Source: a virus
Virus genome (UHGV): UHGV-1636268
Reading direction: 5' to 3' (one strand)
DNA length: 22,365 nucleotides
Shown piece after piece: positions 231 to 20,642 of this stretch. A program made the position numbers and the translations under genes. Numbering within the stretch: the stretch's first letter is position 1; each line of letters begins with the position of its first letter. The notes beneath the pieces were generated by a model. That model had not been told where the DNA came from, made no database searches, and saw only the letters and a list, made by a program, of their open reading frames with translations.

Positions 231-272
231 ATAAGAAAGGCTTAGTCTATTGTGAATATACTACGAAGTTTC

Positions 273-2599: not shown

Positions 2600-2620
2600 A
2601 AAAAGGCTCCCGAAGGAGCC
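2600..2620 (-). terminator. Rho-independent terminator (GGCTCC-cgaa-GGAGCC hairpin + T5 on minus strand)
   Basis: Perfect 6-bp GC-rich stem 2605-2610/2615-2620 with CGAA loop; plus-strand A-run 2600-2604 gives TTTTT 3' of the hairpin on the minus strand; 13 nt after the stop at 2633. Confidence 0.6.
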
Positions 2621-2632
2621 TGTATCTTAACC

Positions 2633-3097
2633 TTAACCGAGGACTTTAGCAAGGATATTCGCAGCCATCGAAGAAGCTTTTGCAGCAGCAGCTACCCCAG
2701 CTTTGATAGCGTTATCCTTGATAGCAGATACCGTTGCAGCATCAGTAAAGAGATAAGTAGTTGTTTTAGAACCACTTGTAAAGGAAAGCATAAGAGCAGT
2801 TTCCAGATTGAAAGAGCGATACGGAGCACCTTCTTTAACGATACCTTCAGCACCTAATTCTGAGGCCATCCCCATATCATAGATAGTCATCAGGTTTTCT
2901 TTGTGTGCAGTCGTTGAACCAGAACCTTTGACGTGTTTCTTAACATTCAAAAGAGCACGATACTCTCGGATGTTGCCGTCTGCTTTTACATTGACAGCAC
3001 GGAAGATTTTACCCTCAAAGTTGTTCTTGATAATGTTACGAACTACTTCAGATTTGTTTGCCGTAACGTCCAGTGCTACCGTAATGATATTGTTCAT
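2633..3097 (-). CDS. Hypothetical protein (154 aa), Ala/Gly/Ser/Thr-rich
   Basis: ATG start with GAGAGA SD; followed directly by a strong terminator; no recognisable catalytic motif. Confidence 0.55.
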   Translation of the reverse strand: MNNIITVALDVTANKSEVVRNIIKNNFEGKIFRAVNVKADGNIREYRALLNVKKHVKGSGSTTAHKENLMTIYDMGMASELGAEGIVKEGAPYRSFNLETALMLSFTSGSKTTTYLFTDAATVSAIKDNAIKAGVAAAAKASSMAANILAKVLG

Positions 3098-3107
3098 AAG
3101 TTTTCTC

Positions 3108-3803
3108 TCAATGTTTAACTAACATGGTTTTGATGTGTGGAAGGATTCTGTTCACCTTCTGCACATTCTTCTCTGTATCTTCTATAAAACATACTATATT
3201 AAAGTAAGGAAGAATGCAAGACTGAATCATCCTCACTTTCAAACTTTCTGCACTTATAGAGTTAGTTCCAAAACCACGCATAAAAAGCAAGTAATCATGC
3301 TCTATATTGTGCCTTAAAAACATCTCAGTAGGTATTCTCTGAGATTCACCTCTCGCTGTCAAGAGTCCAACAGCAGCATGATTAGCAATTGCATCAATGA
3401 TATTGAAAACATACGTTGGTTTTGCTCTTACAGAGTCAAGAAGATTAGTGTACTGTGAAAATGACCCATCAGTCAACTCCGTTGAACAATCTTCGTGATT
3501 AAAATTTGTAAGAACACCATCGATGTCTGCTAAGATGAGATTCCCTTTTTCTACAAGGTCTTTATTGACTATGACTAAGCTATCACGACTTACACCTACA
3601 GTTTGTCCAGTCTCTTTGTCCACAACGCTCACAATTGGTTCTGATGTGTGGAACTCTTCAAGTGAACATACAACTTCTCTTGCAGTATCTTCAAAATCCC
3701 TGCACTGTTCTGGAGTCCATGCGCAGGAATCAAGACCTAACTCATGAGGGTGTAAGTCGTAAGCATGGCACAGTACTTCATCAGACTTTCTTAATTTTTT
3801 CAT
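3108..3803 (-). CDS. HAD-superfamily phosphatase-like protein, possibly a 5'(3')-nucleotidase, with ~80-aa N-terminal extension
   Basis: LILADIDGVLTN matches HAD motif I (hhhhDxDG); LLTAR and FIEDTEKN are consistent with motifs II and IV. ATG at 3803; overlaps the upstream gene end by 23 nt, so the true start may be downstream. Confidence 0.5.
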   Translation of the reverse strand: MKKLRKSDEVLCHAYDLHPHELGLDSCAWTPEQCRDFEDTAREVVCSLEEFHTSEPIVSVVDKETGQTVGVSRDSLVIVNKDLVEKGNLILADIDGVLTNFNHEDCSTELTDGSFSQYTNLLDSVRAKPTYVFNIIDAIANHAAVGLLTARGESQRIPTEMFLRHNIEHDYLLFMRGFGTNSISAESLKVRMIQSCILPYFNIVCFIEDTEKNVQKVNRILPHIKTMLVKH

Positions 3804-4329
3804 GGTTTACCTTAGAAATATTTGTTGCAAATTCACATTGAGCAATAACTTTCATGTTGTTATAGACATCTTGAGAATATTTCTTAGCTTTAGGGATTCT
3901 GTACGAATACCCAGCATTATATGATGCTAAAACTTTTTGTAAAGTATTCTTTGACTTTGGCTGACCATGCACCTTTGTCCAAAACTCAAGCTCTTTGTGA
4001 GTTTCCTTAGCAGCATAATCAAAGTCTTTTAAGAGTTTCTTTTTAGCCACATTAGGACTAATTTTGTTACGCTTTACAACAGTCTTCAAGTGATTCTGGA
4101 AAATACCATAGTCATGGGTCTTTTTATTCTCTACCTTCAGACCTAACTCTGACTCTTGTAAGGCTATAGCAGCTAGAGTGATACCCCAACCTTTACCCAT
4201 ATTATTCTCACCATACTGGTAAGCTTTTAACATGTTTACTTTTTGGCTAATTGATAGCTCTGGGCAGTCAACTGCATAAGATAAGTGTGCTGTAAACATT
4301 AAGCACAAACCTAGAATCAATTTCTTCAT
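3781..4329 (-). CDS. Secreted soluble lytic transglycosylase (SLT-domain) protein
   Basis: N-terminal signal peptide MKKLILGLCLMFTAHLSYA; SLT family-1 motifs in order: QESELG (catalytic E-S), DYGIFQ (GLMQ-like), ASYNAGYS (AYNxG). Confidence 0.6.
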   Translation of the reverse strand: MKKLILGLCLMFTAHLSYAVDCPELSISQKVNMLKAYQYGENNMGKGWGITLAAIALQESELGLKVENKKTHDYGIFQNHLKTVVKRNKISPNVAKKKLLKDFDYAAKETHKELEFWTKVHGQPKSKNTLQKVLASYNAGYSYRIPKAKKYSQDVYNNMKVIAQCEFATNISKVNHEKIKKV

Positions 4330-4360
4330 TGGTTCCCCTGTTTAGTTTATCGTGACATCA

Positions 4361-4389
4361 ATTATACAGCACTCTGCACAAAATACAAA
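4361..4389 (-). promoter_or_regulatory. Sigma70-like promoter candidate for the SLT transcription unit
   Basis: On the minus strand: TTGTAT (4389..4384), 17-nt spacer, perfect TATAAT (4366..4361); ~30 nt upstream of the ATG at 4329 and immediately after the rIIB terminator. Confidence 0.3.
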
Positions 4390-4390
4390 T

Positions 4391-4412
4391 AAAAAAGGCC
4401 GCCGAAGCAGCC
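4391..4412 (-). terminator. Rho-independent terminator (GGCCGC-cgaa-GCAGCC hairpin flanked by A6/T4 runs)
   Basis: Stem 4397-4402/4407-4412 (5 pairs, 1 mismatch) with CGAA loop; A-run 4391-4396 gives TTTTTT on the minus strand; 17 nt after the rIIB stop. Flanking A/T runs could allow bidirectional function. Confidence 0.55.
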
Positions 4413-4429
4413 TTTTAAGAAATTACTTA

Positions 4430-5539
4430 TTAGATTTCACGTTTACGTTGAGAGATGAGTTCCCCAGCAGTACCAACGATGACATGCAAAGCTTCAGTCT
4501 TACCATCCCATGCTTTCAGAACTTTACGTTGATTATCAACGATTGCTGCAACTTCATAACGGGATGAACGCATCTTCATATCGTTGTAATCAGTCGGAAC
4601 AGATACAACATCTCGTGGATGGACACGAACCTTCAGAATTGTATCCCCTGAGAAGCAACGAACATAATCCCAAGCACCAACATGAAGACCTTGAGAGCAA
4701 GTCACGTTACGGTTATTATCAACCATCCAACGTGGCATTTCTACAATGTTACCCAAATCATTAGGTACTCTGTAGGTGTGGGAGTCAACCAGCTTGCCTT
4801 CACGAGTAGATACTTTCTTCCAACCAATGATGTAGCCTTCTTCATCAATTTCAACATCAAGGTGAGATACAAATCCCCAAAGTTGTTCTACAGAGTCTTT
4901 AGATGGGTTTTCCATCAGTTTTTCGAAGAACATTACAAGACGTTCAAAACCTTTATCACCAGTCTTCATCATGTGAAGAATACGGTCAACCAGAGTAGAA
5001 CGCATCTCAACAGCACCATAGAATAGCTTGTCACCTTTGATTGTGATAGCACCCTGAGTGAAGTTTTCGATAGACTTACGAATGTTCATTAGTTCAAATG
5101 CTTTCTTGAACTCGCCTTTCACAACGTGAACTACAATTTCTTGATAGTTCGGATGAGTAGACTCAACAATTTCAGATTCTGAACCGTAAGTCATAATTAC
5201 AGAGTCACCAGTAATCATGTACTCAATCTTGCCATCTTTCTGCATAGCTTCGTGCAGTTTATTTACTGGAGCTTTCTGTACAGCCTCTTTAACAACCTTT
5301 TTAACTGGCTTGTCAGCTTTCTTTTTAACTGATTTAGCAACTTGCTTCAAAGTCTTCGTAGCTGGTTTAGAAGTCACCTTCTTATTCCCTTTTAAGGTTG
5401 CTTCATGACGCTCTACAGCACGACCGACTGAACGGGTTGAGGTGTTAAATTTCTGTGCAATAGCGGTTTTAGTCAGCTTGCCCTCTTTAACCAGTTTGTA
5501 AATTTCTGCGTCAATCTGTGCTTTAGTTTTAGTAGTCAT
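4430..5539 (-). CDS. rIIB: RIIB-like protein
   Basis: Immediately downstream of the rIIA-like gene; size (369 aa) and segments such as CSQGLHVGAW and HPRDVVSVPTDYNDMKMRSSRYEV resemble T4 RIIB as recalled from memory; not checked by alignment. Confidence 0.65.
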   Translation of the reverse strand: MTTKTKAQIDAEIYKLVKEGKLTKTAIAQKFNTSTRSVGRAVERHEATLKGNKKVTSKPATKTLKQVAKSVKKKADKPVKKVVKEAVQKAPVNKLHEAMQKDGKIEYMITGDSVIMTYGSESEIVESTHPNYQEIVVHVVKGEFKKAFELMNIRKSIENFTQGAITIKGDKLFYGAVEMRSTLVDRILHMMKTGDKGFERLVMFFEKLMENPSKDSVEQLWGFVSHLDVEIDEEGYIIGWKKVSTREGKLVDSHTYRVPNDLGNIVEMPRWMVDNNRNVTCSQGLHVGAWDYVRCFSGDTILKVRVHPRDVVSVPTDYNDMKMRSSRYEVAAIVDNQRKVLKAWDGKTEALHVIVGTAGELISQRKREI

Positions 5540-5588
5540 CTTATTACTCTCTCTTGTTAGTTAATAAATCATTTTGTGATGCTATTTT

Positions 5589-5608
5589 AAGGGGCTTTGA
5601 AGCCCCTT
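5589..5608 (-). other. Stable hairpin between rIIA and rIIB (AAGGGGC-tttgaa-GCCCCTT) with no T-run
   Basis: 7-bp stem 5589-5595/5602-5608; the sequence 3' of it on the minus strand is AAAATAGC, so it is not a canonical terminator. Possible RNA processing or stability element, or partial attenuator. Confidence 0.3.
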
Positions 5609-5618
5609 GTCAAACACT

Positions 5619-7985
5619 TTAATCATAAATTGTAGTCCCTTCTGGAACACATTTTACATCAAAGCCTAAGAACTTACTCACTTCGATGGGTGACACTTTA
5701 TTCCAATCTAAATGAGAAAGCAAGAAGTTTTCTTGTTTTCTTTTTGAAAGGTAGTTTGTCACCTTAATGACCATACGGTCACCAGCTTTCTTAATTTTCT
5801 TGTAAAGCTTTGTATCATTGTCAAGACAGTCTTTCAAAGTTTTCAATACACTAATAGTATAAGTGTATGCAAATGGTGCAGCAACGTATTGGATTTTACC
5901 GAACATTGCCTCTACAGCATCTTCATTTCCTTCTAGGAAGATAGTTTTGTTTGTATCCCGTGAATAGCAATAGCCACGAGAAATCTTCCTGTTATTGAAT
6001 GTAAAGTTTCTGGCAATAATCCAGCTACTTGTAAGGTCAAGAACACCATTCATGTAGATGCGTGTCATATACCTGTTATGATTAATCCAATGAACATCAG
6101 TTAAGCTGTCGTTCAAGAGCTTCTCATCTACTTCAATCCAGTCTTCTGGTATCTTTTTCCAATTTGCTTTTCGGAAAACATAGACTGTCTTTCCAATAAC
6201 ATTAGCAACTGACTTAGCTACATCTTCTGGTGATGAGCAAAAACATTCACCATCAACTGTGTCACCAATTGCCTTAATGTAAAGCTGAGGTTCTTCAATT
6301 GTGTCTAAGTCCTCTGACACCTCTTTGTAGGAGGCTACACCTTCTGCTGGAACAGCTTTCCAGAGTTTTACAACACCTCTTACAGCTTCTTTACGCTGGT
6401 AATGGTGTTCCTTATCAGACATTTTCACAATCTTTAACAAGCTTTTATCAAGTTTGTGTAGATTGATTAAATCATCTAACTCTTTTTCAGTCGAGAATAC
6501 AAACACAATCCCATTGTATCTGTGAAACAGACTTGACTCACTGGCGTAGTCTCGACATGCACCACGCAAGATTTGATTGCGACCTACAGTCTTCTCAGTA
6601 CCATTTTTATTGCGACGGTCATTAATCACGAACAAAAACTGTTCAATTTGGCTTTTACGCATTGCGCCAAAGATATTGAACATACTTGCCTCTTGAGTGT
6701 AGGAAAGTGCTGTTGCACGAATCTTACTCTCTAAAGAGTTGAACTTGACATAAGCAACTGGATTATAAAGATAATCTACTTTAGGGATATTGTTCCCGTT
6801 CCTATCAACCTTAATATTACCTTTGCCGTCACGTTCATAAATGACTGAGCCGTCTTCTGCGTAGATAATTCCACGACGAATGTTTAGCAATTCTTCTTCC
6901 AGAGAATCAAGCTTAACGCCACCCCACTCTAGCTTTGGACACACAGCATTAAACATCTCTCGTGAGTTCAAACGTAACTCAGCATAAGCCTGTGCAGCAT
7001 CCATGAGTGTAGGTTGGCTATTAACTTTCTTGATAACATCCTTTGTAATGGCTTCAGTTATCTTTTTAGTAGCCTCAATGATAACATTTTTTGTCGTGTC
7101 ATTCATCTGCAATGCTTCACGAGAAGCTGCAATAGCAACTGAACCAATAGGCATGTAGATGTTTACAAGGTCTACGCTCCTACGGAAAAATTCTGGCAAT
7201 ACTTTGAAGAAATCATCACCAAGTAACGCTTCCATGTTAACAGGGTAGGCAATGTTACCCATCACCACATTAAACTCTGTCCTGTTACCACTAGAACGCC
7301 AGCTTTGCTTATGAATCATGGCATCATAAACACCCTCTTCACGGGCAATGACGTTCATATCTGCTAATACATCGTCGTACACAATATTACTTTCTGGTTT
7401 TACAGCAAAGTATGAGTATACATTACCAGCTTCTTCAAAGAACTTTGAGATACGGTGGTCAGCAACTGCCACACGTACAGCTAAACCATTAGGTTCATTT
7501 GTTTGGTTAGTAGTAAGCTTAGTTACTTGAGGGATACCATTCTCAAGGTAAACAGAGTACTTATTAACAACACCATCAACATAGCTAGATACTGTGAATG
7601 ACTGAGCAATTGCAAACGGTGACTTTGAGCCGATGCCCATTGCACCAATGTAGTCATTAGAGTCATTCTTCGTAGAAGCCCCGTAGTTCAGATACAAACT
7701 CATTACTTTGTCATGGGTTAAACCAGTTCCAAAGTCACGGACTTCAAAGTAAGGCTCAAATCGAGTAGGCAAATGCACATGGAACGGGATGTTTTCTTTT
7801 CCAGCTTCTTTCTGAGCATCTACTGCGTTACATGACAGTTCACGAATCACTGCCCTTTCTTTAAACGTGTATACACCAGAACTCAAAAGGCTGAACATTT
7901 CAGGTGTCATTGTAATCTGTGCTTGAGACGTCTCTAAAGAAGTTGAACTCTTAATCACTTCTGCGTGGTCGTTTACCATGCGCAT
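5619..7985 (-). CDS. rIIA: RIIA-like protein with N-terminal GHKL (histidine-kinase-like) ATPase domain
   Basis: GHKL motifs near the N-terminus: N-box ELSCNAVDA, G1 box VRDFGTGL, G2 box GAMGIGSKS. Size (788 aa) and position next to rIIB match T4 rIIA. Confidence 0.8.
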   Translation of the reverse strand: MRMVNDHAEVIKSSTSLETSQAQITMTPEMFSLLSSGVYTFKERAVIRELSCNAVDAQKEAGKENIPFHVHLPTRFEPYFEVRDFGTGLTHDKVMSLYLNYGASTKNDSNDYIGAMGIGSKSPFAIAQSFTVSSYVDGVVNKYSVYLENGIPQVTKLTTNQTNEPNGLAVRVAVADHRISKFFEEAGNVYSYFAVKPESNIVYDDVLADMNVIAREEGVYDAMIHKQSWRSSGNRTEFNVVMGNIAYPVNMEALLGDDFFKVLPEFFRRSVDLVNIYMPIGSVAIAASREALQMNDTTKNVIIEATKKITEAITKDVIKKVNSQPTLMDAAQAYAELRLNSREMFNAVCPKLEWGGVKLDSLEEELLNIRRGIIYAEDGSVIYERDGKGNIKVDRNGNNIPKVDYLYNPVAYVKFNSLESKIRATALSYTQEASMFNIFGAMRKSQIEQFLFVINDRRNKNGTEKTVGRNQILRGACRDYASESSLFHRYNGIVFVFSTEKELDDLINLHKLDKSLLKIVKMSDKEHHYQRKEAVRGVVKLWKAVPAEGVASYKEVSEDLDTIEEPQLYIKAIGDTVDGECFCSSPEDVAKSVANVIGKTVYVFRKANWKKIPEDWIEVDEKLLNDSLTDVHWINHNRYMTRIYMNGVLDLTSSWIIARNFTFNNRKISRGYCYSRDTNKTIFLEGNEDAVEAMFGKIQYVAAPFAYTYTISVLKTLKDCLDNDTKLYKKIKKAGDRMVIKVTNYLSKRKQENFLLSHLDWNKVSPIEVSKFLGFDVKCVPEGTTIYD

Positions 7986-8013
7986 AATACTTTCCTCTCA
8001 GTTTACTGTTAAA

Positions 8014-8507: not shown

Positions 8508-8524
8508 AGTCTTCTCCAGAAATT

Positions 8525-8545
8525 AAAAAGGCTCCCGTAGGAGCC
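8525..8545 (-). terminator. Rho-independent terminator (GGCTCC-cgta-GGAGCC hairpin + T5)
   Basis: Perfect 6-bp stem 8530-8535/8540-8545; A-run 8525-8529 gives TTTTT on the minus strand; 16 nt after the NAMPT-like gene stop. Confidence 0.6.
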
Positions 8546-8560
8546 TCTTATCATATACTT

Positions 8561-10342
8561 TTAAAGCTGCTTGTCAATATTATTTCGAATATCACCAAGA
8601 GTTGTGTAACCGAACTGCTCAGAGTCGCTAAAGACTAGACGCAAAGCACAAGCTGGGTGTTCAAGTGCATCTGCAAAGCTCTGGAACCCATAGCCATCTA
8701 CAGCTTTCAGATTTTCACAATCCCACATAGGTGCTACACCACCAAAAGCAGACTTCTTAACACCACTATCTGTTTTAGGGTCTTTTGCAAGCATAATCTC
8801 TTTACCACCAATGCTTGCAAGAGTTGCTTTGACAGCAAATGCAAAGGTGTCACGAGTCATGTACTGGTAAGTGTAAGAACCTACACCAAACACTACGTTA
8901 GAGCTTGCAAAACCAATTTCATACAAACGCTTCAGTATTTCGTTTGCACGTTCCAACGTGATAGAGTCGCCATAAATAAGCCCGATATGCTCATCCAGTA
9001 CTTTAAAACCTTTAGAGTTGATAGTTCCTCCAAAGATGTTATACAGTGTCTTAATAGCTCCATCAATCTCCGCTACAGGACGTGTTACAACGTTTGCAGA
9101 GCCGTTGATGTAAGCATCTTTCAGCAACACTGTATCGGCTACTTCAAAGTCTTCTCTGTCAACAACCATTTCGTAGCCTTCTGACAGTAGCCATCCAGCA
9201 ATACCATAGTTAATGTTTTCAAGCTTCATGTTCAGGACAGAGTTCAGCATTGTATCACTTGCCTCTAGCTTGCTTAGGTGCTCGTAATAAGCCTTTTTAG
9301 CACACTCTAAGTGGATTGCTTTGTAACCTGTGACAATATGTACAGGGTCTCCAGAGTCAGGGCGAATTACCAGTTTACCATCACGTTCCATAATTTCTTT
9401 ACGGAGTGCTGGTAAGATTTCTGACACAGTTCTCCAGAAGTTATAAGTATCTGAAACAACACTTGCAATACCAGTTGGGTAAGTTTCTGTTAAGAAACGA
9501 CGGAAGGTTTGTAACTCACCTTTAAAGCGTCTTTCTTCTTCAATCAACTCATTACCACCTTCCCAAGCAATGTTTGCACACATTACAGAGTGCTCAGTGG
9601 CTGGTACAGAGCTACCAATATCAGAGATTGGGTAAGACTGTCCATAGATTCGTTTAGCCGTATACACAGCAGGGAAGCTATCAGTTCCTTTAAAGCTGGT
9701 TAAGTGGCCTACAGCGTTAAATGCGTCATCAGTAAAGCCGGACATACCACGCATAGCAAAGTCATGGCACTGATAAGGTAAATGTAAGTCGTTGTCGCAA
9801 GTAAGGTCAGCCCACTTCTTACAGATGCGTTTATAATGCAATGCAATAGTTGCAATGGTACAAGCCTTCCAAATCTCAGCAGAGAAAGCATCTTCCAGAT
9901 ACCCCGCTACCCAATGGAAACCTGAAACAGTGTTCTGGAAGACAATCATTGGGACACGCATAGGGACAACTGTACCTTCTTCTACCGCGTATACTTCAAC
10001 TGGTAGATAACCTAAGTCGTGAAGTGCTTCCCAATGCTCTCGACCGATAGCATCTTTACCCAGAACACCATTCATGACTTCTAAGATTTCGTCAATTGCT
10101 TCTTTTTTATCACGTTCAAAGAAAGTGGCGTTCCAGTGGTCTATCAAGTAATCTTTAACAAAACGTTGAATACCAAAAGCCACTACACCGTCAATTGCTA
10201 AAGGGCTGTTAAACCATTTGTCACTACGTGGTGTCAGGTTGAACATCAAGTATTCTGTTGCACTAGGGTACTGGTAAACATGGCCAGACTTGTAAGCATC
10301 CGCGTTTAAACCTGCTGGTACTGCATAAAGTGATTTAGTCAT
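8561..10342 (-). CDS. nadV: Nicotinamide phosphoribosyltransferase (NAMPT/NadV) family protein; candidate nicotinamide ADP-ribose transferase (Namat-type) given its Prs-like partner
   Basis: N-terminus NADAYKSGHVYQYP parallels the NAMPT N-terminal signature (human ATDSYKVTHYKQYP, recalled). ATG start verified. At 593 aa it is ~100 aa longer than the ~490-aa canonical enzyme. Lies directly downstream of the Prs-like gene. Confidence 0.8.
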   Translation of the reverse strand: MTKSLYAVPAGLNADAYKSGHVYQYPSATEYLMFNLTPRSDKWFNSPLAIDGVVAFGIQRFVKDYLIDHWNATFFERDKKEAIDEILEVMNGVLGKDAIGREHWEALHDLGYLPVEVYAVEEGTVVPMRVPMIVFQNTVSGFHWVAGYLEDAFSAEIWKACTIATIALHYKRICKKWADLTCDNDLHLPYQCHDFAMRGMSGFTDDAFNAVGHLTSFKGTDSFPAVYTAKRIYGQSYPISDIGSSVPATEHSVMCANIAWEGGNELIEEERRFKGELQTFRRFLTETYPTGIASVVSDTYNFWRTVSEILPALRKEIMERDGKLVIRPDSGDPVHIVTGYKAIHLECAKKAYYEHLSKLEASDTMLNSVLNMKLENINYGIAGWLLSEGYEMVVDREDFEVADTVLLKDAYINGSANVVTRPVAEIDGAIKTLYNIFGGTINSKGFKVLDEHIGLIYGDSITLERANEILKRLYEIGFASSNVVFGVGSYTYQYMTRDTFAFAVKATLASIGGKEIMLAKDPKTDSGVKKSAFGGVAPMWDCENLKAVDGYGFQSFADALEHPACALRLVFSDSEQFGYTTLGDIRNNIDKQL

Positions 10343-10389
10343 CTTTTAATCTCTCTCTCAAAATGGGTCTTTCAAGCCCCTATAAAGTT

Positions 10390-11271: not shown

Positions 11272-11282
11272 AGTTTTGTCTC

Positions 11283-11561: not shown

Positions 11562-12069
11562 TGTAAGTTGCCCTATAAACTGTCTCGAATTTCAACAGGA
11601 GAGATATTGCCAAATCTGTATAGTTATTGTCAAGCACATCTGGCATATTATTTTTGATATATTTCTCTTGCTCTTCGTAGGTCATCTTAGGGATGCTTAG
11701 AAGACTATCACCTTGATTCTGATTATCAAGTTTAGTCTGGATAAACCAGTTTGCACAGTGATGCTCACCACCCTTTGTAACAGGTTTGTGGTGGCCTAAT
11801 GTGAAGGATTGACTACCTGTGTATCTGCAAAGTTTATTGAGCACTGTAATGGTGTTCTTCACAACAAAACATTCATATAGGTTATCTATAGTGTAGTGTG
11901 GGTAATAACGGAATAGTGCTCTTTCACGAGTACTTTCACGATTCCAGAGAATCATGTGATTGGAGTTTGAGGAGTCGTATTGGTGGTAGTCAATGAACTC
12001 TTGACGTTCCTCAAAGCTGAGTCTTAACACTGACATTGCAGCAGAACGTTTCAGATTTGACAGATACAT
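11554..12069 (-). CDS. Hypothetical protein (171 aa) with His/Cys-rich segment GHHKPVTKGGEHHC
   Basis: ATG start with GGAG SD 6 nt upstream, directly after the terminator at 12084-12107; possible metal-binding motif; family not recognised. Confidence 0.5.
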   Translation of the reverse strand: MYLSNLKRSAAMSVLRLSFEERQEFIDYHQYDSSNSNHMILWNRESTRERALFRYYPHYTIDNLYECFVVKNTITVLNKLCRYTGSQSFTLGHHKPVTKGGEHHCANWFIQTKLDNQNQGDSLLSIPKMTYEEQEKYIKNNMPDVLDNNYTDLAISLLLKFETVYRATYNG

Positions 12070-12083
12070 GTTATCTCCAAAAT

Positions 12084-12107
12084 AAAAAGGGAACCTTTAC
12101 AGTTCCC
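12084..12107 (-). terminator. Rho-independent terminator (GGGAAC-7 nt loop-GTTCCC + T5)
   Basis: Perfect 6-bp stem 12089-12094/12102-12107; A-run 12084-12088 gives TTTTT on the minus strand; 14 nt after the stop at 12121. Confidence 0.55.
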
Positions 12108-12120
12108 TTATAGTATCTGC

Positions 12121-12441
12121 TTACTGAGCTACTTTCAAGATTCTTGTGAATGGAATTTCACTTTCTTCCATTAACTCTTTAGTTTCTTTGGTAACTTTCA
12201 CAAAGTTATCTAGGCAGATAATCTTCTTATCTTTCTTGCTATAGGTCAATTTAACCTTTTCAATATCTTTCTCAGAGCTTTTCTCTTCATTGAAGAGTTT
12301 TACAGCCTCTTTGAATGGAAGATATGAGCCATCATTATCACTAATGAATCCTGTACCACAATAGTAGGAGTTATGCTCTCTAGCCATAAACTGGCACAGT
12401 AAGAAAATCTGTAATTTACGAGTGTTATAAACTTTGCTCAT
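12121..12441 (-). CDS. Hypothetical protein (106 aa)
   Basis: ATG-initiated ORF, 2 nt after the upstream stop; no recognisable motif. Confidence 0.5.
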   Translation of the reverse strand: MSKVYNTRKLQIFLLCQFMAREHNSYYCGTGFISDNDGSYLPFKEAVKLFNEEKSSEKDIEKVKLTYSKKDKKIICLDNFVKVTKETKELMEESEIPFTRILKVAQ

Positions 12442-12443
12442 GA

Positions 12444-12710: not shown

Positions 12711-12806
12711 TTTTAGTCTCTCTCATTAAAGTTTAATACAGAACTTATGAAGTTCTTCTTCAGTGATACCAATTGGAGTTATACCTTAGTCCATTTGCCA
12801 GAATAA

Positions 12807-13292
12807 TCACTCTGCTCTCCACTGACAATCACCTTGCCACCCATACTCTTTTCTCCAGAGGTTTTGGTTATCAGAACCACGATATGGTTTAACTGTTGGT
12901 TTAGATGAATCATACTTACCATCAATCACCACGTCAACATATTTCATCACATCAAGGTGAATTTTTTCATGTAACTGAAAACCTGTCCAGAGCCAGATAG
13001 ATTTCTCTGGATAGATTGATTTAACCTTCTGACAAATCTTAGTGACTTCTCCAATGTTACGGTCATCCAATGGTTCTCCACCGAGGATAGACAGCCCACT
13101 TAAAGAGTCATCTTCCAAAAGTCTTAGAATGCCATAAAGGTTTGCATAAGTGAACTCTTTACCAGCATTAAACTTCCAAGACTCCCTGTTAAAGCAGCCT
13201 TCGCAGTGATGCTTACAACCAGCTACGAAGAGGCTTACACGAACCCCTTCACCATTAGCTGTATCAAATGGTCGAATCTCCATGTAATTCAT
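12807..13292 (-). CDS. nrdG: Anaerobic ribonucleotide reductase activating protein (radical SAM)
   Basis: Radical-SAM cysteine triad CKHHCEGC (CxxxCxxC) near the N-terminus; size (161 aa) matches NrdG; anaerobic reductase gene lies upstream in the same strand. Confidence 0.85.
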   Translation of the reverse strand: MNYMEIRPFDTANGEGVRVSLFVAGCKHHCEGCFNRESWKFNAGKEFTYANLYGILRLLEDDSLSGLSILGGEPLDDRNIGEVTKICQKVKSIYPEKSIWLWTGFQLHEKIHLDVMKYVDVVIDGKYDSSKPTVKPYRGSDNQNLWRKEYGWQGDCQWRAE

Positions 13293-13301
13293 CTAGTTAC
13301 C

Positions 13302-13601
13302 TCACCAATACATATAAGTGTTCTGAGCAGCTTTCTTTGGAGACTTGCTATCAATGTCAAAGTCTTCATCTAAGAAGGATGTCTTAGAAAGCTGCCTTAT
13401 TTGTGTTCTTGTAAGACGTTTAGTGGCCTTCTTAATCTCTCTACAAGGCTGGCTTGTAAAGTCGTAAAAGCCACCTTTTCTGGACATCATATCAGAGTGG
13501 TAGTAGACCTCTGAAGCATTTTCTCTGTTACGTACCTCATTTCTCCACTCATAAAATCCATGAACGTTCTTTAAACCTTTTCTTCGAATTGTTTTACTCA
13601 T
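13302..13601 (-). CDS. Hypothetical basic protein (99 aa)
   Basis: ATG at 13601..13599 overlaps the upstream stop as ATGA. Confidence 0.45.
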   Translation of the reverse strand: MSKTIRRKGLKNVHGFYEWRNEVRNRENASEVYYHSDMMSRKGGFYDFTSQPCREIKKATKRLTRTQIRQLSKTSFLDEDFDIDSKSPKKAAQNTYMYW

Positions 13602-14190: not shown

Positions 14191-14344
14191 TTTAACTTGC
14201 CTCTTAATTCACAATAAGAGAGTCCTAAAAAGAACCCTAGTAAGACAGAACCTATGAATAGGCCAATGATGTTCTCTGCCATATCTAACATCCAATAAAA
14301 AAGGTGATGTAAGCCTATCAAGACTCACACCACCATGTCAAGTT

Positions 14345-16489
14345 TTACATAGAAACTCTGTTACGAATCTCAGCGATTTTTGCATCATTCATTCGTGATT
14401 CACCTTTAATCTTAGTCCATCCAAGATAACCACACACCCTGTTAATCACAGAGATATCATGTGAATGGCAAACCTCACATTCTTCAACATCAGCCTTTGG
14501 TCTGTTACCACAATGCTCACAGATTGCTAAGTCAAAGTTAAGTCCCTGATAAAAACCCTTCAACATCCCTCTGGTAATACAACTTTTAAGTGCTGTTAAG
14601 TTTTCTGGGTTAGCTACCCTTACATACTGGATTCTACCACCTCTACAGATATGGAAGAATGGCTCTTCTAAGTCCTGCTTCTCAAATGGTGAGATGTCTG
14701 CTGCAACATTCATATGGAAACTGTTTGTAAAGTATTCCTTGTCAGAGACACCTTTAATAACGCCAAACATATCTCTGAACTGTTTTAGCTGAGTTCCACA
14801 AAGTGATTCTGCTGGAGTGCCATAGACTGCATATAAGAAGCCATCTTCATTTTTAAACTCTTCAGTTTTCATGTTGATGTATTCCAGAACATCGTATGCA
14901 AAACTACAGCTTCCGACTTCATGAAGTCGTTTACCTTCAGCAAGAACAGACAGCTCATCAAGAGCAGTAACCCCAAAAGAAGCTGTGAAGGATTTCACAA
15001 TATCCCAACCAACCCTGTCAGTAGGTTTCTTAGTCCCTTTGTACAGACCACCTTGTGTGAATGCAAGAGGGTTAGAACTTGCTGGCATATTAGCAATCAT
15101 TTCGTAACGTTTCTTGTGGAAGCTGCGAATCATCTCTAGGTACTTATTAAGCTCTTTCCAGAAATCTAAACCATTCTCTTTAGAATACTGGTAAATCATT
15201 GGTAAGTTCAAAGATACAGCACCAATGTTAGCACGACCAACGTAGAACTCTTCCCCATCCTCATTAAGATATGGAGATAAGAAGGCTCTACAACCCATCG
15301 GCGAAATTACCTTGCCAGAACGCTCAAAAGCTTCTGCTACAGCACCATGACCAGATACACTTAAGAAATCTGGATACATCGCTTTAGAGCAACACTCTAT
15401 AGCTTTACTGTACAGGTGGCCTTGACAGATATTCTCATTATGTCTCTTCTGGTCATAAATATAAACAAGTTTAGGGAATACAACAGGTTTCTTGCTCTTA
15501 CCTTGTCCATTCATACGAACATCTAGGAGAGTACTTGCAATCATATATTGCAGTCGGTTATCTTCATTGGACATATCTGAGTCAAGTAACCCGAATGTCA
15601 AAGTTGTGAATGCAAAATCCCCACGGCTACAAGGTACAGTGTTTAGTTTCATTTCAAGTGACTGGAAACCTTGAGTCAGTTCAATCTGTAGCTGCTCCAT
15701 GACATAATTGTGGTAATGTTCTTTAGGAATACCATAAGATGCTGCTTTCTCAGCATGGTAGCGTAGAGACTTCTTAGCATACGGCACAAGTACCTTATCA
15801 ATCTCTGCTAAAGTAAAGCCACCAAATTGCTGTGCAGTTGCTGAAAGAACTACGTCACCAATAACCTGCAACGCTGACAGCACAGACTTCGGTTCACAAT
15901 ATTCGATGCCAGACATTTCAAAGCCACCTTTCAGGACTTTACCAATGTCAAACAGGCAACAGTTAATACCACCAAAAATCAGGTCTCTTAAATCATGGAT
16001 ATAGATAAAGCCTTTCTCAATGGCTTCAAGTTCCTCTGGTGTTAGATGATACTGTTTAAAGATTTCTTTAGTCAGGTAACCACGGATAATTGAACCTTTC
16101 GTAGAAATTAAACTGCTGTCAAAGTTAGCATTTTCACGGTCACCTAAGAAGAGTGTATCTTTAGTCTTCTGGTAGAGTTCATCCCAATTTTGAGCAACCT
16201 CTTTACGGTAATTTCTATATGTTGAGTAAGACTCATAAATCTCGTGATTGACTTCTGCCAAAGCACCCTCAACAATACTGTGAATATCATTTACCGAAAT
16301 TAGCAAATTATTCTGCTTAGTGGACTTTACCAGAATCCTCATAAATGCTGACTCAAGAGCTTGAGTAACATCTGGTGGAAGCTCTTTATAACCAACTCTG
16401 TTAGCTGACTTTGTGACTGCTGCTAAAACTTTTTTGATATCAGGTTCTTCAAGTGAGCCATTCTTTTTAATAATCTGTACTTTGTTCAT
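14345..16489 (-). CDS. nrdD: Anaerobic ribonucleoside-triphosphate reductase (class III, glycyl radical enzyme)
   Basis: C-terminal glycyl-radical motif RVCGYLG preceded by zinc ribbon CEHCGN...CEVC; N-terminal ATP-cone-like segment; 714 aa; ATG start with AAGGGG SD. Confidence 0.9.
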   Translation of the reverse strand: MNKVQIIKKNGSLEEPDIKKVLAAVTKSANRVGYKELPPDVTQALESAFMRILVKSTKQNNLLISVNDIHSIVEGALAEVNHEIYESYSTYRNYRKEVAQNWDELYQKTKDTLFLGDRENANFDSSLISTKGSIIRGYLTKEIFKQYHLTPEELEAIEKGFIYIHDLRDLIFGGINCCLFDIGKVLKGGFEMSGIEYCEPKSVLSALQVIGDVVLSATAQQFGGFTLAEIDKVLVPYAKKSLRYHAEKAASYGIPKEHYHNYVMEQLQIELTQGFQSLEMKLNTVPCSRGDFAFTTLTFGLLDSDMSNEDNRLQYMIASTLLDVRMNGQGKSKKPVVFPKLVYIYDQKRHNENICQGHLYSKAIECCSKAMYPDFLSVSGHGAVAEAFERSGKVISPMGCRAFLSPYLNEDGEEFYVGRANIGAVSLNLPMIYQYSKENGLDFWKELNKYLEMIRSFHKKRYEMIANMPASSNPLAFTQGGLYKGTKKPTDRVGWDIVKSFTASFGVTALDELSVLAEGKRLHEVGSCSFAYDVLEYINMKTEEFKNEDGFLYAVYGTPAESLCGTQLKQFRDMFGVIKGVSDKEYFTNSFHMNVAADISPFEKQDLEEPFFHICRGGRIQYVRVANPENLTALKSCITRGMLKGFYQGLNFDLAICEHCGNRPKADVEECEVCHSHDISVINRVCGYLGWTKIKGESRMNDAKIAEIRNRVSM

Positions 16490-16508
16490 TATTGCCCCTT
16501 TACATGCT

Positions 16509-16529
16509 AAAAAGGTCTCCGAAGAGACC
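16509..16529 (-). terminator. Rho-independent terminator (GGTCTC-cgaa-GAGACC hairpin + T5)
   Basis: Perfect 6-bp stem 16514-16519/16524-16529; A-run 16509-16513 gives TTTTT on the minus strand; 9 nt after the stop at 16538. It separates the aerobic and anaerobic reductase gene blocks. Confidence 0.55.
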
Positions 16530-16537
16530 CTTTCATT

Positions 16538-16744
16538 TTAAATCTTTTTAGAAAACTTCGCAAAGAGTTCTCTTAGTTTTTCAGTGATACCTAACTGTAT
16601 CTCTAATATTTCGAAGATAACCCATAGTAACATGGCTCCAAACAATGAACCTTGTTCAAAGTCAGTAAATAGATTAACAATAAGCATACCAATCACAATA
16701 GCTGGTGCATCAACAACAAAACCTTCCCAAATGCGTTTAAGCAT
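16538..16744 (-). CDS. Small hydrophobic protein (68 aa), predicted membrane protein
   Basis: Hydrophobic core AIVIGMLIVNLF...LFGAMLLWVIF; ATG start overlapping the end of the redoxin gene. Confidence 0.4.
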   Translation of the reverse strand: MLKRIWEGFVVDAPAIVIGMLIVNLFTDFEQGSLFGAMLLWVIFEILEIQLGITEKLRELFAKFSKKI

Positions 16745-16979
16745 TATTCACCTCTGCCATAAAATTCTGTAGCGTACCAACAGGTTTTAGGTTTTGCCCA
16801 TCAGTTTTCATGATGAATGGCATCTGACGAACTGGCATCTGTGCAATATCAATCAGGTCTGATAGTTCATAGTCCTGCCCTAACATTCTCACAACATGGT
16901 CAATACCACGAGCTTTTGCAAAATTCTTTGCAGTCTCGCACTGAGGGCATCCAGTTTTGGAGTAAATTACATAAGTCAT
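16737..16979 (-). CDS. Glutaredoxin-like redoxin (NrdH/NrdC type), probable electron donor for the class Ia reductase
   Basis: Active-site CPQC at residues 11-14 in an 80-aa thioredoxin-fold-sized protein; its ATG overlaps the nrdB stop as TAATG. Confidence 0.75.
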   Translation of the reverse strand: MTYVIYSKTGCPQCETAKNFAKARGIDHVVRMLGQDYELSDLIDIAQMPVRQMPFIMKTDGQNLKPVGTLQNFMAEVNNA

Positions 16980-18052
16980 TAAGGAACCTCTAAAAATCCA
17001 CTATTCAAATCATCTACAACAGTATTCAATAGGTACGCACCGTTCTGTTGCTCCTGATTAGCATTCTGCTCTTTATCAATTTCCATCTTCTTAATCATGT
17101 ACTTCAAAGGTGGTTCTTTAGGAGCTACAAAATCTCTGGGAATGCCAAACATATCATACAGTGGGGCAGCATTATAGTAAACCCACTCATGAAGAAGCTT
17201 TGTATTTAAGCCAACTACAGCACGTCCTTCGGAGAAGATATAATACGACCATTTCTCTTCACTTTCAACTACTTCATCTAAGATTACTTTAATCTCTGGA
17301 AGAATTTGTTGAAAAGCTTTCTGCCACTCATCATCTCTTAAAGTTTCTTTTAAAACTTCAATATCAATTTTAGTGTGAAGGATTTCATCAAGCATAATCT
17401 TCTGCACAGCTTGAGCAATACCCTGAAATTTATCTTGAGCATCAAGTGCAAAAGTACATGCAAAGGATGCCATAAAAGATATACCTTCAAGTGCAGTCAC
17501 TGCAAACAGCCCTTTCAGAATCACTTTATGGAAGTGTAAAGGGTCTTTGTCCAGAAGTGAATCACGCACATAACTCAGACGATAGTTTATACCTTCATCC
17601 AGTAATTCTTCAAGAACACGATTCACAGTTTTTAATCGGTCTTGCACAGCAACATTCTGGTTAATCTCATCTAAGATTGTTTCAGGGTTTTTAATACATT
17701 GCCTTACAATCTCTGAGTAAGTAAGGGCATGTAGGTTTTCAATCTCAGACTGCTTCATAATTGCAGTTGCATAGATGTCATCAGAGATAAATGGTGCAAA
17801 GGCAAATGCCAAGCTCTTAGCAACTTGAGTATCTGCTTCCCACTGCCACTTAAGAATCTCAAGCATTACACCTGACATTGATGCTGGGACACTCTCAAAA
17901 TCAAGACGTGATTGTTCAAAAGGGAACTCATCTTCTGACCAGTCTTGTGCTTTTTGTTGTTTATAAAGTTCAAAGATTTTTGGGTAGTGTTTATTAAGTG
18001 AGTCAAAAGTTTTTCTCTCACCACCTAAAAAGATTGGGTGCTGGTTAATCAT
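16979..18052 (-). CDS. nrdB: Ribonucleoside-diphosphate reductase beta subunit (class Ia)
   Basis: Ferritin-like R2 features including LEGISFMASFACTFAL. Start trimmed to ATG at 18052..18050 (MINQHPIF...), which overlaps the upstream stop as ATGA; the track's 18112 start is TTG. Confidence 0.9.
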   Translation of the reverse strand: MINQHPIFLGGERKTFDSLNKHYPKIFELYKQQKAQDWSEDEFPFEQSRLDFESVPASMSGVMLEILKWQWEADTQVAKSLAFAFAPFISDDIYATAIMKQSEIENLHALTYSEIVRQCIKNPETILDEINQNVAVQDRLKTVNRVLEELLDEGINYRLSYVRDSLLDKDPLHFHKVILKGLFAVTALEGISFMASFACTFALDAQDKFQGIAQAVQKIMLDEILHTKIDIEVLKETLRDDEWQKAFQQILPEIKVILDEVVESEEKWSYYIFSEGRAVVGLNTKLLHEWVYYNAAPLYDMFGIPRDFVAPKEPPLKYMIKKMEIDKEQNANQEQQNGAYLLNTVVDDLNSGFLEVP

Positions 18053-18306
18053 AGCGTGATTTCTCCTTTCTTTATCATTTCTAAGGCTTGTTTTCTGTCT
18101 AAAACTTCCCAATTTTCTTTGTTGAACATCTCATAAGGTCTTGCGTAGATTTTACCATCTGCTGTAGAGATGTAAGAGATACCAGCAACCCATGAGTCAT
18201 CCTTTTGTTTTATCATCATATCTGTGCTACTCACATAGTACATCGTTTTCCGAGGCTTGTGGAGCAAGTATATAGGTCGCTCATGTTTTTCTATTAAATC
18301 TTTCAT
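18049..18306 (-). CDS. Hypothetical protein between nrdA and nrdB (85 aa from the internal ATG; 113 aa if started at 18390)
   Basis: The ATG at 18306 has a GGAGAG SD; the longer form from 18390 would overlap the nrdA 3' end by 29 nt. No HNH or GIY-YIG endonuclease motifs seen. Confidence 0.45.
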   Translation of the reverse strand: MKDLIEKHERPIYLLHKPRKTMYYVSSTDMMIKQKDDSWVAGISYISTADGKIYARPYEMFNKENWEVLDRKQALEMIKKGEITL

Positions 18307-18361
18307 GGTCTCTCCAAAGTTATTTTTAGATGGTCTTTTACGACCCTCATAGTTGTTAAAA

Positions 18362-20596
18362 CTAAACACCACAACCCTCGCAATAAGCATCTTGCAGTGC
18401 AGATTTACCTACACCAATGCGACTGTTAAGGTAGTACATGGTTTTCATACCTACCGAGTTGGCATAAATCATGTACTTCAAAGCTTGAGCCAATGATACC
18501 TTCTTAGACTTTGCATAGTCAACATAGAAGTCTGAAGAGATAGCTTGACCAGTGAACTTTTGAACAATTGCATAACAGTCAATCATATCAAAGGTGTCGA
18601 TATCCCAAGCAATTTCATAGACATACTTCAATTCTTCATAATCTGGAACAATAAACAGTACGTTACCAGTTGCAGACTTTTTAGTTAAAATAAAGTCACG
18701 AATTGGGTACAAACCATTTGTCGTATTGGTTGCCAGTGAAGAACTCTCATTAGGCATGTAAGCTTCTAATACAGAGTTTCGGATTCCACCATTTTCTTTG
18801 ATACGTTGTGCTAAGTCATCCCAATCATATCGTAGTTTTGCATCATGCTTTTCATCAATCTTCTTGTTAGCTGTCTTTGGAGGAACCCAGCCTTCAGGAT
18901 ACTTAGTGAACTTCATGTACTCTGGCACGCCACGTTCTTTAGCAAGTCTCAGAGAGGCTTCATGCAGATAGTAAGAGTGCATCTCTGCCAGTTCATGAAG
19001 TTTCGTTTTACCTGCTCGTGAAGAGTAGTTCACGTAGTTCTTCGCAAGGTAATGAGCCACATTTGTAAGGCCAATCCCAACAGAACGACGCTTCTGAACG
19101 TGGTTACGCATCGACGGATACGGATAATCCATAAGGTCAATAACGGAGTCAACCATTGCAAGAGCATAATAAGCAACGTCAGCGTATTCATCTTCTGAAA
19201 TTCTCCCTGCAACCAAACTAGCTAGGAAGCAAAGAGCCACCTCACCATCCTCTTTCACAGCATCATCTCTGTAAAGGTCTGTCTCTTTCTCAAAACCATA
19301 CACTGGCAATACAATTTCCATACAAAGATTTGACATCTTCAAAGGCTCTTTAAATGGTGTATGTGTGTTTGCATTATTCGTGAAGAATGGGTACACACGA
19401 CCTGTTGCATAACGCTGCTGGATAAACAGTTTAGCAATTTCACGAGCCTTTACTCGTCTGTGCTTAACACCTGAATGCACTGCGTGACCAACTGCCATAG
19501 CAAACTCATCAGCAGATGCTGTGTAGAACATGTCATAGAGTTTTGGTGCATCTTTGTAAGAGAATAGCAACCAGTCTGTATCATATTGAACACACTGCCA
19601 GAAATAATCATTTGTACCAAATGAGTAGTCCATCTCATTAATACGTTTAGAAGGAACCGTTGTAGGGTGCTTCAAACGCAGTAAATCTTCAATCTGCGGG
19701 TCTAGAGCAGTGTAGAAGTTATTAGCTGAACCACCACGACTCTTCTGTTTGTTTGCCTCTACAGATGAGCGTACAAGCTTGTAATAAGGTAGTTTACCCA
19801 TGTGCTCAATAGTATTTTGACGGATACCATCACCAATAGTACGAGTCTCCATCAGCATCCCAATGCCAGCTTGCTTTGTAGTCATATCATAAGCAACCTT
19901 TGCAGCAATACCGAGAGACTCAGCAGTATCATTTGCCTTAATCAAACAGCATGACGCATAACCTGATTTAGTTGCTCTTAACCCGTTTAAATAGGGCGTA
20001 GGAGCGTTAATCTTCAGGTCAGATAGGTAAGTGTACAGCTTGATAACATCTTGCAGTCTACGGTGCTTTGGTTGCTTCTCAAAGGCTTTCATAGCCATAC
20101 CCATGAACATAAATTGTGGTGACTCAAAAAGTCTTCCCGTTTTAATATCACGGATACCATACTTGTCTCTGAACTGTTTCAAGACTGCATAACCGTAAGA
20201 GATATCTTTTGAGTGCACAATGTAACCTTGCAGGTATTCAAGCTCTTCCTGTGAGTAGTCCATCTTCTCCCAAAGTCCTGCTCTCTCCATATTTTTAACG
20301 AAGGTAACCAGCGTAGGAACCTTAGTAAATCCTCCAAATGCTTCTTTGTAGATAATACCCAAAAGCAGTCGTCCAGCCATATCTGAGTACTCTTGAGTTT
20401 GTTTATCAACACAAACATCAATCATGGCTTGGTGCATCTCTTTTGTAGTGCAACCCTCATAGACACGTTTCATAGCTTCCATAGTGACTTCTGACCAGAT
20501 AATTCCACGTTTATCTGCCCATGATGCCCACTTATTCAGTCTTTCTGGGTCAAAGCTTACTACTGTACCATTTGATTTTTTAATTGTCTTAATCAT
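18362..20596 (-). CDS. nrdA: Ribonucleoside-diphosphate reductase alpha subunit (class Ia)
   Basis: 744 aa; active-site region SNLCMEIVLP (cf. conserved NLCTEI); C-terminal redox cysteines CEGCGV; ATG start with AGGA SD. Confidence 0.9.
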   Translation of the reverse strand: MIKTIKKSNGTVVSFDPERLNKWASWADKRGIIWSEVTMEAMKRVYEGCTTKEMHQAMIDVCVDKQTQEYSDMAGRLLLGIIYKEAFGGFTKVPTLVTFVKNMERAGLWEKMDYSQEELEYLQGYIVHSKDISYGYAVLKQFRDKYGIRDIKTGRLFESPQFMFMGMAMKAFEKQPKHRRLQDVIKLYTYLSDLKINAPTPYLNGLRATKSGYASCCLIKANDTAESLGIAAKVAYDMTTKQAGIGMLMETRTIGDGIRQNTIEHMGKLPYYKLVRSSVEANKQKSRGGSANNFYTALDPQIEDLLRLKHPTTVPSKRINEMDYSFGTNDYFWQCVQYDTDWLLFSYKDAPKLYDMFYTASADEFAMAVGHAVHSGVKHRRVKAREIAKLFIQQRYATGRVYPFFTNNANTHTPFKEPLKMSNLCMEIVLPVYGFEKETDLYRDDAVKEDGEVALCFLASLVAGRISEDEYADVAYYALAMVDSVIDLMDYPYPSMRNHVQKRRSVGIGLTNVAHYLAKNYVNYSSRAGKTKLHELAEMHSYYLHEASLRLAKERGVPEYMKFTKYPEGWVPPKTANKKIDEKHDAKLRYDWDDLAQRIKENGGIRNSVLEAYMPNESSSLATNTTNGLYPIRDFILTKKSATGNVLFIVPDYEELKYVYEIAWDIDTFDMIDCYAIVQKFTGQAISSDFYVDYAKSKKVSLAQALKYMIYANSVGMKTMYYLNSRIGVGKSALQDAYCEGCGV

Positions 20597-20614
20597 TTTC
20601 GAATCCTACAGATG

Positions 20615-20636
20615 AAAAGAGCCTCCGAAGAGGCTC
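20615..20636 (-). terminator. Rho-independent terminator (GAGCCTC-cgaa-GAGGCTC hairpin + T4)
   Basis: Perfect 7-bp stem 20619-20625/20630-20636 with CGAA loop; A-run 20615-20618; 7 nt after the stop at 20643 and directly upstream of the nrdA ribosome-binding site. Confidence 0.55.
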
Positions 20637-20642
20637 CCTAGT

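Follow-up and report, generated by a model that had tools for sequence, protein, structure and literature searches.

How is a compact phage gene array transcribed when one gene ends in a terminator-like hairpin and the ribosome-binding site of the next gene follows almost at once? This question is raised by a 22,365-nucleotide (nt) stretch of the virus genome UHGV-1636268 (the window, meaning this whole stretch at its full length), in which short GC-rich hairpins of nearly identical sequence lie between genes that are all encoded on the minus strand. The answer that we favor, with a probability of roughly 70%, is that these hairpins are intrinsic terminators or attenuators and that most of them form part of compact promoter/terminator cassettes, which would give insulated and separately driven gene blocks. 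The terminators themselves are already known and ordinary, because a published table for phage Felix O1 and the GenBank record of phage KhF2 list them. The modest new point, as far as it can be read from sequence, would be the composite architecture that joins promoter and terminator.

Judged by its sequence, the window belongs to a Felixounavirus, that is, a Felix O1-like myovirus of the Ounavirinae, with 99% of its length matched to Felixounavirus genomes at around 95-96% identity. It was compared with 29 related loci, 7 of them Mooglevirus-like (NadV 73-75% identical), and with the assembled genomes of KhF2 and Felix O1. The whole homologous region of KhF2, the annotated relative, carries minus-strand genes, and since every gene of the region lies on this strand, the hairpins have to be read there, too. 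Six of them had been listed in an initial annotation made from the window alone:

2620-2605, minus strand: stem-loop of T2600 (t5 of Felix O1), RNA GGCUCC-UUCG-GGAGCC, U5 at 2604-2600, -13 kcal/mol
4412-4397, minus strand: stem-loop of T4391 (t2 of Felix O1) after rIIB, RNA GGCUGC-UUCG-GCGGCC, U6 at 4396-4391, -14.7 kcal/mol; whole element 4361..4416
8545-8530, minus strand: stem-loop of T8525, upstream of the small genes preceding rIIA, RNA GGCUCC-UACG-GGAGCC, U5 at 8529-8525, -16.6 kcal/mol
12107-12089, minus strand: stem-loop of T12084 (t124 of Felix O1), upstream of the NAD (nicotinamide adenine dinucleotide) module, RNA GGGAACU-GUAAA-GGUUCCC, U5 at 12088-12084
16530-16514, minus strand: stem-loop of T16509 (t116 of Felix O1), upstream of nrdD, RNA GGGUCUC-UUCG-GAGACC, U5 at 16513-16509
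20636-20619, minus strand: stem-loop of T20615 (t111 of Felix O1), upstream of nrdA, GAGCCUC-UUCG-GAGGCUC, U4 at 20618-20615, -15.2 kcal/mol; element 20615..20639

All six are present where they had been placed, and each of the earlier ranges corresponds on the plus strand to the A-run (the complement of the U-tract) together with the stem-loop. The description of GC-rich stems of 6-7 base pairs (bp) followed by T-runs is likewise borne out, with 10-12 pairs once the A-U extension is counted and with runs of U4-U6 in the RNA: The tract directly 3' of the stem is U5 or U6 at five hairpins and U4 at 20636-20619, and it is conserved in relatives. Four CGAA loops and one CGTA loop had been reported, which is correct for the non-transcribed strand; the RNA reads UUCG (at 2600, 4391, 16509, and 20615) and UACG (at 8525), so that 5 of the 6 hairpins have a UNCG loop on a C-G closing pair. 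The stems begin 6-17 nt past a minus-strand stop codon, the layout claimed earlier with a lower bound that had been set 1 nt too high, and the next start codon follows the stem after 19-24 nt at five hairpins and after 67 nt at 4391. Whether the folding is too weak had been proposed as a check, and it is not: Energies lie between -12.4 and -16.6 kcal/mol, and comparison with dinucleotide shuffles gives z-scores from -3.4 to -5.0. A count of C(UNCG)G hairpins of 6 or more pairs gave 5, all on the minus strand, compared to a mean of 0.004 in 2000 Markov simulations of the window.

UNCG tetraloop hairpins were first noted in intercistronic regions of phage T4 (Tuerk et al. 1988, as cited in PMC3972237) and are over-represented among intrinsic terminators of E. 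coli (d'Aubenton Carafa et al. 1990, as cited in the same source). The five window hairpins of this type resemble that system in their C-G-closed UUCG or UACG loops, short GC-rich stems, and U-runs, unlike the hairpin at 12107-12089, which is the exception with a loop of 5-7 nt (GUAAA or UGUAAAG) and no UNCG. At gathering thresholds, no Rfam family was matched anywhere in the window. Two other ways of looking at the hairpins were tried and rejected: A plus-strand terminator-like match at 16514-16529 is merely the complement of T16509 in a place without plus-strand genes, and nothing points to a role at the level of DNA (as a cruciform or protein-binding site), while the asymmetry of loop and U-tract agrees with the strand that is transcribed and each of the five UNCG hairpins lies on the coding strand. 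As a separate observation, most of the 3' arms contain GGAG, which may be a RegB-like cleavage site.

Between the window and the Mooglevirus-like group, the stems are 0.9-1.0 identical and the 45-nt flanks 0.5-0.8. The hairpin at 16509 is unchanged in 31/31 genomes. Over all UNCG hairpins, pairing is kept in 98.7% of cells, 5 of 7 pairs have changes on both sides, and none of 500 shuffles reached the observed score. At 20615, the stem GAGCCUC/GAGGCUC is replaced by GGGUCUC/GAGACCC in Mooglevirus-like relatives, amounting to two compensatory double changes. Three relatives (two with the sequence of locus L009 plus locus L017, the latter with an additional stem mismatch) carry CGTA instead of TACG in the loop of the 8545-8530 homologue (GGCTCC-CGTA-GGAGCC), an exact loop inversion of the kind expected from template switching at an inverted repeat. 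With CGUA in place of UACG at the 8525 site of these relatives, the UNCG tetraloop is not strictly required. Taken together, the anatomy of the hairpins, their conserved stems amid diverged flanks, the compensatory changes, and prior annotation in Felix O1 and KhF2 support reading them as terminators, as had been proposed at the outset.

The same initial annotation had the array of six partition the window into units. Such a partition is apparent but incomplete in that version, which missed two strong terminators and two weaker hairpins:

14334-14303, minus strand: stem-loop of T14334, downstream of nrdD and splitting nrdD from the small genes and nrdG, 14-bp stem, -21.8 kcal/mol, z -6.8, U6 at 14302-14297; element 14297..14341
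243-202, minus strand: T243 (t13 of Felix O1) after the Macro-domain gene, stem 241-204 of 15-17 bp, then U5, -25.8 kcal/mol, z -7.5; element 199..243
5606-5591, minus strand: hairpin in the rIIA-rIIB gap, GGGGCU-UCAA-AGCCCC, without U-tract
10380-10365, minus strand: H10370, weak hairpin in the gap between the phosphoribosyl pyrophosphate (PRPP) synthetase gene and nadV, GGGGCU-UGAA-AGACCC, then AUUUU, -2.9 kcal/mol in the window

A GC-rich hairpin is found in 9/10 of the minus-strand intergenic gaps of at least 40 nt. In the stem of T14334, 98.1% of cells are paired, with 2 compensatory double changes. The hairpins at 5606-5591 and 10380-10365 represent a second type, GGGGCU-N4-AGCCCC, whose stem is invariant and whose loop is hypervariable, unlike the conserved UUCG loops. 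H10370 is weak in the window owing to a stem-breaking C-to-A change; its relatives form a perfect GGGGCU-N4-AGCCCC at -10 kcal/mol, with at least 10 different loops.

Much of this had been recorded before. Whichard et al. (2010, Viruses 2:710, Table 2) listed the Rho-independent terminators t2, t5, t13, t111, t116, and t124 of Felix O1, including the sequences ggctccttcgggagcctttttcattt for t5, gagcctcttcggaggctctttt for t111, ggtctcttcggagaccttttt for t116, and gggaactgtaaaggttccctttttatttt for t124. The tabulated sequences are those of window hairpins (t2 is 4391, t5 is 2600, t13 is 243, t111 is 20615, t116 is 16509, and t124 is 12084), and they sit at junctions that agree with the gene table of Felix O1. 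Felix O1 also carries the hairpins at 8545-8530 and 14334-14303, which Table 2 does not list. In the KhF2 GenBank record, terminators are annotated at the homologues of 2600, 4391, 14334, 16509, and 243. The same record also places an 11-nt "attP" label (L001 12231-12241, homologue of window ~12090) across the 12084 terminator hairpin; this label is implausible for a virulent phage and looks like an annotation artefact. The Felix O1 study limited its promoter search to intergenic regions and stated of the passage of transcription past the terminators that it "is not known". Its reverse transcription PCR (polymerase chain reaction) data showed a peak at 25 min for genes 111-115 and one at 60 min for nrdD (gene 117), i.e., across t116, a difference in timing that is consistent with insulation at this junction.

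Where, then, would transcription of the downstream genes begin? The initial annotation had seen no room for a promoter between several hairpins and the following ribosome-binding site and concluded that there must be read-through or promoters embedded in coding sequence. Putative promoters of the embedded kind are conserved at 2600, 8525, and 12084 and less conserved at 16509. At 4391, a conserved putative promoter lies downstream of the hairpin, and read-through, the other branch of the suggestion, is what is left at 20615. The candidate promoters of the window that are associated with hairpins are the following:

2600..2652, minus strand: T2600 cassette, -35 TTGCTA at 2652-2647, stop codon in the spacer, -10 TAAGAT at 2629-2624
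8525..8577, minus strand: T8525 cassette, -35 TTGACA at 8577-8572 in the last nadV codons, stop codon in the spacer, -10 TATGAT at 8555-8550
12084..12138, minus strand: T12084 cassette, -35 TTGAAA at 12138-12133, stop codon in the spacer, -10 TACTAT at 12115-12110
16509..16563, minus strand: T16509 cassette, -35-like TTGCGA at 16563-16558, -10-like TAAAAT at 16540-16535 with the stop codon within it
14297..14341, minus strand: T14334 cassette, TTGACA at 14341-14336 ending 1 nt before the stem, TGaTAGGCT (extended -10-like, 14317-14312) inside the hairpin
5584..5613, minus strand: rIIA-rIIB promoter with the hairpin in its spacer, TTGACA at 5613-5608, TAAAAT at 5589-5584
4388-4361, minus strand: conserved promoter downstream of T4391, TTGTAT at 4388-4383, TATAAT at 4366-4361, TGTGCAG in the spacer

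The best sigma-70 matches of the window in a simple scan sit at hairpins, namely TTGACA-N16-TATGAT (8577-8550) and TTGACA-N18-TAAAAT (5613-5584), each with 11/12 consensus positions. At 8525, TTGACA-N16-TATGAT or TATTAT is found in 30/30 relatives, with a variable spacer and a -10 box that always ends 4 nt before GGCUCC. All relatives share TTGAAA-N17-TACTAT or TATGAT at 12084, even those with a different upstream allele, again with a variable spacer and with 2 nt between -10 box and stem. The 2600 site reads TTGCTA or TTGCGA across relatives, followed by N17, one of TAAGAT, TATTAT, TATGAT, TAATAT, or TACTAT, and a fixed distance of 3 nt to the stem. In the rIIA-rIIB gap (5590), TTGACA-N17/18-TAAAAT or TAGAAT is kept in all relatives while the loop of the hairpin varies, and at 14334 the TTGACA is invariant in non-coding DNA, even where the upstream gene is replaced. 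The 16509 promoter is well formed in the Mooglevirus-like clade (TTGAAA-N17-TAATAT-AA-GGG) and reads TTGCGA-N17-TAAAAT in the window, and the promoter downstream of 4391 appears as TTGAAA or TTGTGT-N16-TATAAT in 5/5 distant relatives. By position weight matrix, consensus matches, and alignments, boxes and spacing are thus kept across two genera while the spacers and the inner -10 positions differ in sequence, a pattern that would be expected of real promoters. Three of these promoters (including the 8525, 5590, and 2600 sites) were predicted by BPROM in Felixounavirus UAB_Phi87, with no comment on their overlap with terminators.

Promoter footprints overlap 6 of 10 hairpin cores of the window, compared to a mean of 1.39 under random placement (P = 0.001). 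Over the whole KhF2 genome, an abutting promoter was found at 5 of ~17 terminators, two of them outside this region, at a background of ~0.0013 per position. As further observations in KhF2, the abutting layout TTGACA-N17-TATCTT-CATA-GGCTCCTTCGGGAGCC occurs after the lysozyme gene (9950-9965, plus strand), and TTGCCG-N16-TATAAT stands directly before GGGAGC...GTTCCC at 12007-12030 (plus strand).

The hairpin itself recurs far more widely. The exact 20-mer of the 2600 terminator, GGCTCCTTCGGGAGCCTTTT (as RNA, GGCUCCUUCGGGAGCC-U4), is present in at least 120 viral contig stretches, and the 92 contexts of the 20-mer that are unrelated to this phage contain an abutting promoter-like site in 0/92 cases. 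With this control, stop codons and A-rich flanks can be rejected as the source of the promoter-like boxes, and the flanks of terminators do not in themselves account for the association of promoter and hairpin. Common descent or a mobile-repeat origin is an unnecessary explanation for the near-identical hairpins given those 120 or more stretches and 92 unrelated contexts; because the exact 20-mer recurs there, their similarity is explained by convergence on one optimal short terminator. The sequence comparisons thus suggest that the hairpin is a generic convergent design and that the abutting promoter is specific to this phage group.

If the cassettes work as their anatomy and conservation suggest, polymerases arriving from upstream (host RNA polymerase) would release at the U-tract, a few nt past the upstream stop codon. 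The putative signal block would span ~75 nt and comprise, in this order, the last codons with the -35 box, the stop codon in the spacer, the -10 box, the hairpin, the U-tract, the Shine-Dalgarno sequence, and the start codon. In the proposed arrangement, 2-4 nt separate the -10 box from the stem (2600, 8525, 12084, and 16509), or the hairpin lies inside the promoter (14334 and 5590). The sigma-70 holoenzyme would then start ~6-9 nt past the -10 box, inside the 5' arm. The stem left over after a start in this interval was computed at 0 to -9 kcal/mol, versus -12 to -16 kcal/mol in read-through RNA. RNA initiated at a cassette would escape the terminator because a start inside or beyond the 5' arm leaves the full stem unformable. 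At 4391, a conventional promoter would follow the terminator, and at 20615, where no promoter was found at any spacer length, expression of nrdA would for this reason still need read-through.

By analogy, the closest described system is that of the promoter-early stem-loop (PeSL) cassettes of the T4-like phages RB49, phi1, PST, and nt-1 (Arbiol et al. 2010, PMC2839356; Comeau et al. 2014, PMC4122927), whose subclasses include a stem-loop between the promoter boxes and a stem-loop just downstream of the -10 box. The window cassettes resemble PeSLs in joining a sigma-70-type promoter (16-18 nt spacer, activity predicted) and a stem-loop terminator that are followed by a Shine-Dalgarno sequence and start codon, and some of them are also located at module junctions. 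They differ in that their phage belongs to the Ounavirinae, whereas PeSLs are hosted by T4-like phages, and in having the stop codon in the spacer (2600, 8525, and 12084) or in the -10 box (16509) with a coding -35 box, whereas the stop codon of a PeSL lies in an AT-rich stretch upstream of the -35 box. Furthermore, their stems are short UUCG hairpins instead of polyG/polyC stems, they flank core metabolic genes (nrd, nadV, and rII) as well as small open reading frames (ORFs), and a role in recombination is weakly supported for them. Our literature search found no paper linking PeSLs to Felix O1-like phages.

Several findings weigh against composite cassettes. T20615 has only U4 and lacks a promoter. 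About half of the close relatives have a degenerate -35 box at 16509, and the -10-like TAGGCT at 14334 is a poor match that is invariant mainly through the invariance of the whole hairpin. The -35 boxes at 8525 and 12084 lie within conserved C-terminal codons, so that protein constraint may explain part of their conservation. A transcript whose first nucleotide was the initial G of the stem would include the full terminator and not escape it. Finally, the literature searched yielded neither mapped 3' or 5' transcript ends nor Term-seq, RNA-seq, or in vitro data on Felix O1-like phages, and termination, its efficiency, and start sites are all inferred.

The lack of a promoter at T20615, the many close relatives with a degenerate -35 box at T16509, and the location of -35 boxes in coding sequence would also be expected if the hairpins were plain terminators or attenuators, the adjoining promoter-like boxes were non-functional, and downstream genes were reached by partial read-through from distant promoters. 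Promoter-like matches are indeed common, with 56 minus-strand sites in the window at the same score threshold. We nevertheless consider this alternative improbable: It does not account for boxes and spacing that are kept in two genera while spacers and middle -10 positions drift, for the positional association with hairpins (P = 0.001) and the 0/92 abutting promoters in unrelated phage contexts, or for the TTGACA at 14341-14336, which stays invariant in non-coding sequence even with the upstream gene replaced.

A start at the first G of the stem would yield an mRNA that begins with a 5' hairpin and would fit a different alternative, namely that the hairpins act mainly post-transcriptionally, either as 3' exonuclease barriers for the upstream mRNA or as 5'-terminal stem-loops stabilizing the downstream mRNA. 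Exceptional stability is a property of hairpins with a UUCG tetraloop (Tuerk et al. 1988, as cited in PMC3972237), and the stems at 5606-5591 and 10380-10365 are invariant without a good U-tract. Yet U4-U6 are conserved at all six listed hairpins as well as at 14334 and 243, although a pure stability element needs no such tract, and we rate a mainly post-transcriptional function as unlikely, a little more so than plain termination. The roles are, moreover, not exclusive, as a terminator hairpin also protects the 3' end that it makes.

That the cassettes serve above all as linkers at which homologous recombination exchanges gene modules, a role proposed for PeSLs, and that recombination between copies keeps them nearly identical, seems very improbable to us: Alignment break points do cluster beside 2600, 8525, and 10370 and on both sides of 14334 (41/229 within 80 nt of a hairpin versus 8.3% expected, 2.2-fold), genes flanking 8525, 12084, and 14334 come in alternative versions around an unchanged cassette, and the cassettes align over ~85 nt with 60% column identity, but most break-point clusters fall at hairpin-free gene borders (e.g., 1258-1273, 12760-12811, 13295-13324, and 15292), break points are not independent events, and the identical hairpin in at least 92 unrelated phage contexts makes near-identity possible by convergence.

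The reading of the hairpins as terminators that are mostly combined with promoters remains the one that we prefer, and the gene order shows what they would separate. According to the annotation of KhF2, the order of transcription runs from small ORFs over nrdA, nrdB, glutaredoxin, and nrdD to small ORFs with nrdG, followed by PRPP synthetase, nadV, rIIA, rIIB, and more small ORFs, with a Macro-domain protein as the last. Of the unit labels given in the initial annotation, those for aerobic ribonucleotide reductase, nrdD, NAD, and rII agree with annotated relatives, and the Macro domain was borne out as well. SLT gave a weak match under the Pfam cut-off, and no match was obtained for HAD or spanin.

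Some further features lie beside these elements. Just past the stop codon of the gene at 21278-22033, a 7-bp GC-rich hairpin (GUGGCUC-AGAA-GAGCCAC, 21270-21247) is no terminator by the usual criteria, being without a U-run and inside the start of the next ORF. The 112-nt gap past T14334 (14297-14190) may encode an unannotated hydrophobic peptide of ~30 amino acids, MAENIIGLFIGSVLLGFFLGLSY..., and the sequence downstream of T14334 is replaced in many relatives. Just downstream of T243, four direct-repeat copies of ~30-34 nt are found at 21-214 (minus strand ...TCATTTTnnAAnnGTGCAGGTA). Their TGTGCAG motif is also present at 4386-4374, in the spacer of the conserved promoter after T4391, and the repeats could be a promoter cluster or binding sites of a regulator.

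In practical terms, the junctions matter for the annotation and engineering of Felix O1-like phages, which serve in the biocontrol of Salmonella and E. coli. Promoter, terminator, and ribosome-binding site would share ~75 nt that reach into the end of the upstream gene, so that a change made close to a gene end could damage several of these signals together. If the starts predicted within the hairpins are true, the junctions would provide a clean natural example of a terminator that spares the transcripts of its own embedded promoter as well as a compact part for synthetic biology.

For the biology of these phages, the gene blocks of the window appear to be separately insulated and separately driven units. 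Whether the Felix O1-like and Moogle-like members of the Ounavirinae rely on a junction of PeSL-like, ultra-compact design in which the same 75 nt stop incoming polymerases and launch terminator-free transcripts is a proposal whose chances we see as evenly balanced. If true, it would answer the question of the Felix O1 study of how transcription passes the many terminators of this phage, and composite promoter/terminator cassettes would extend beyond the T4-like phages.

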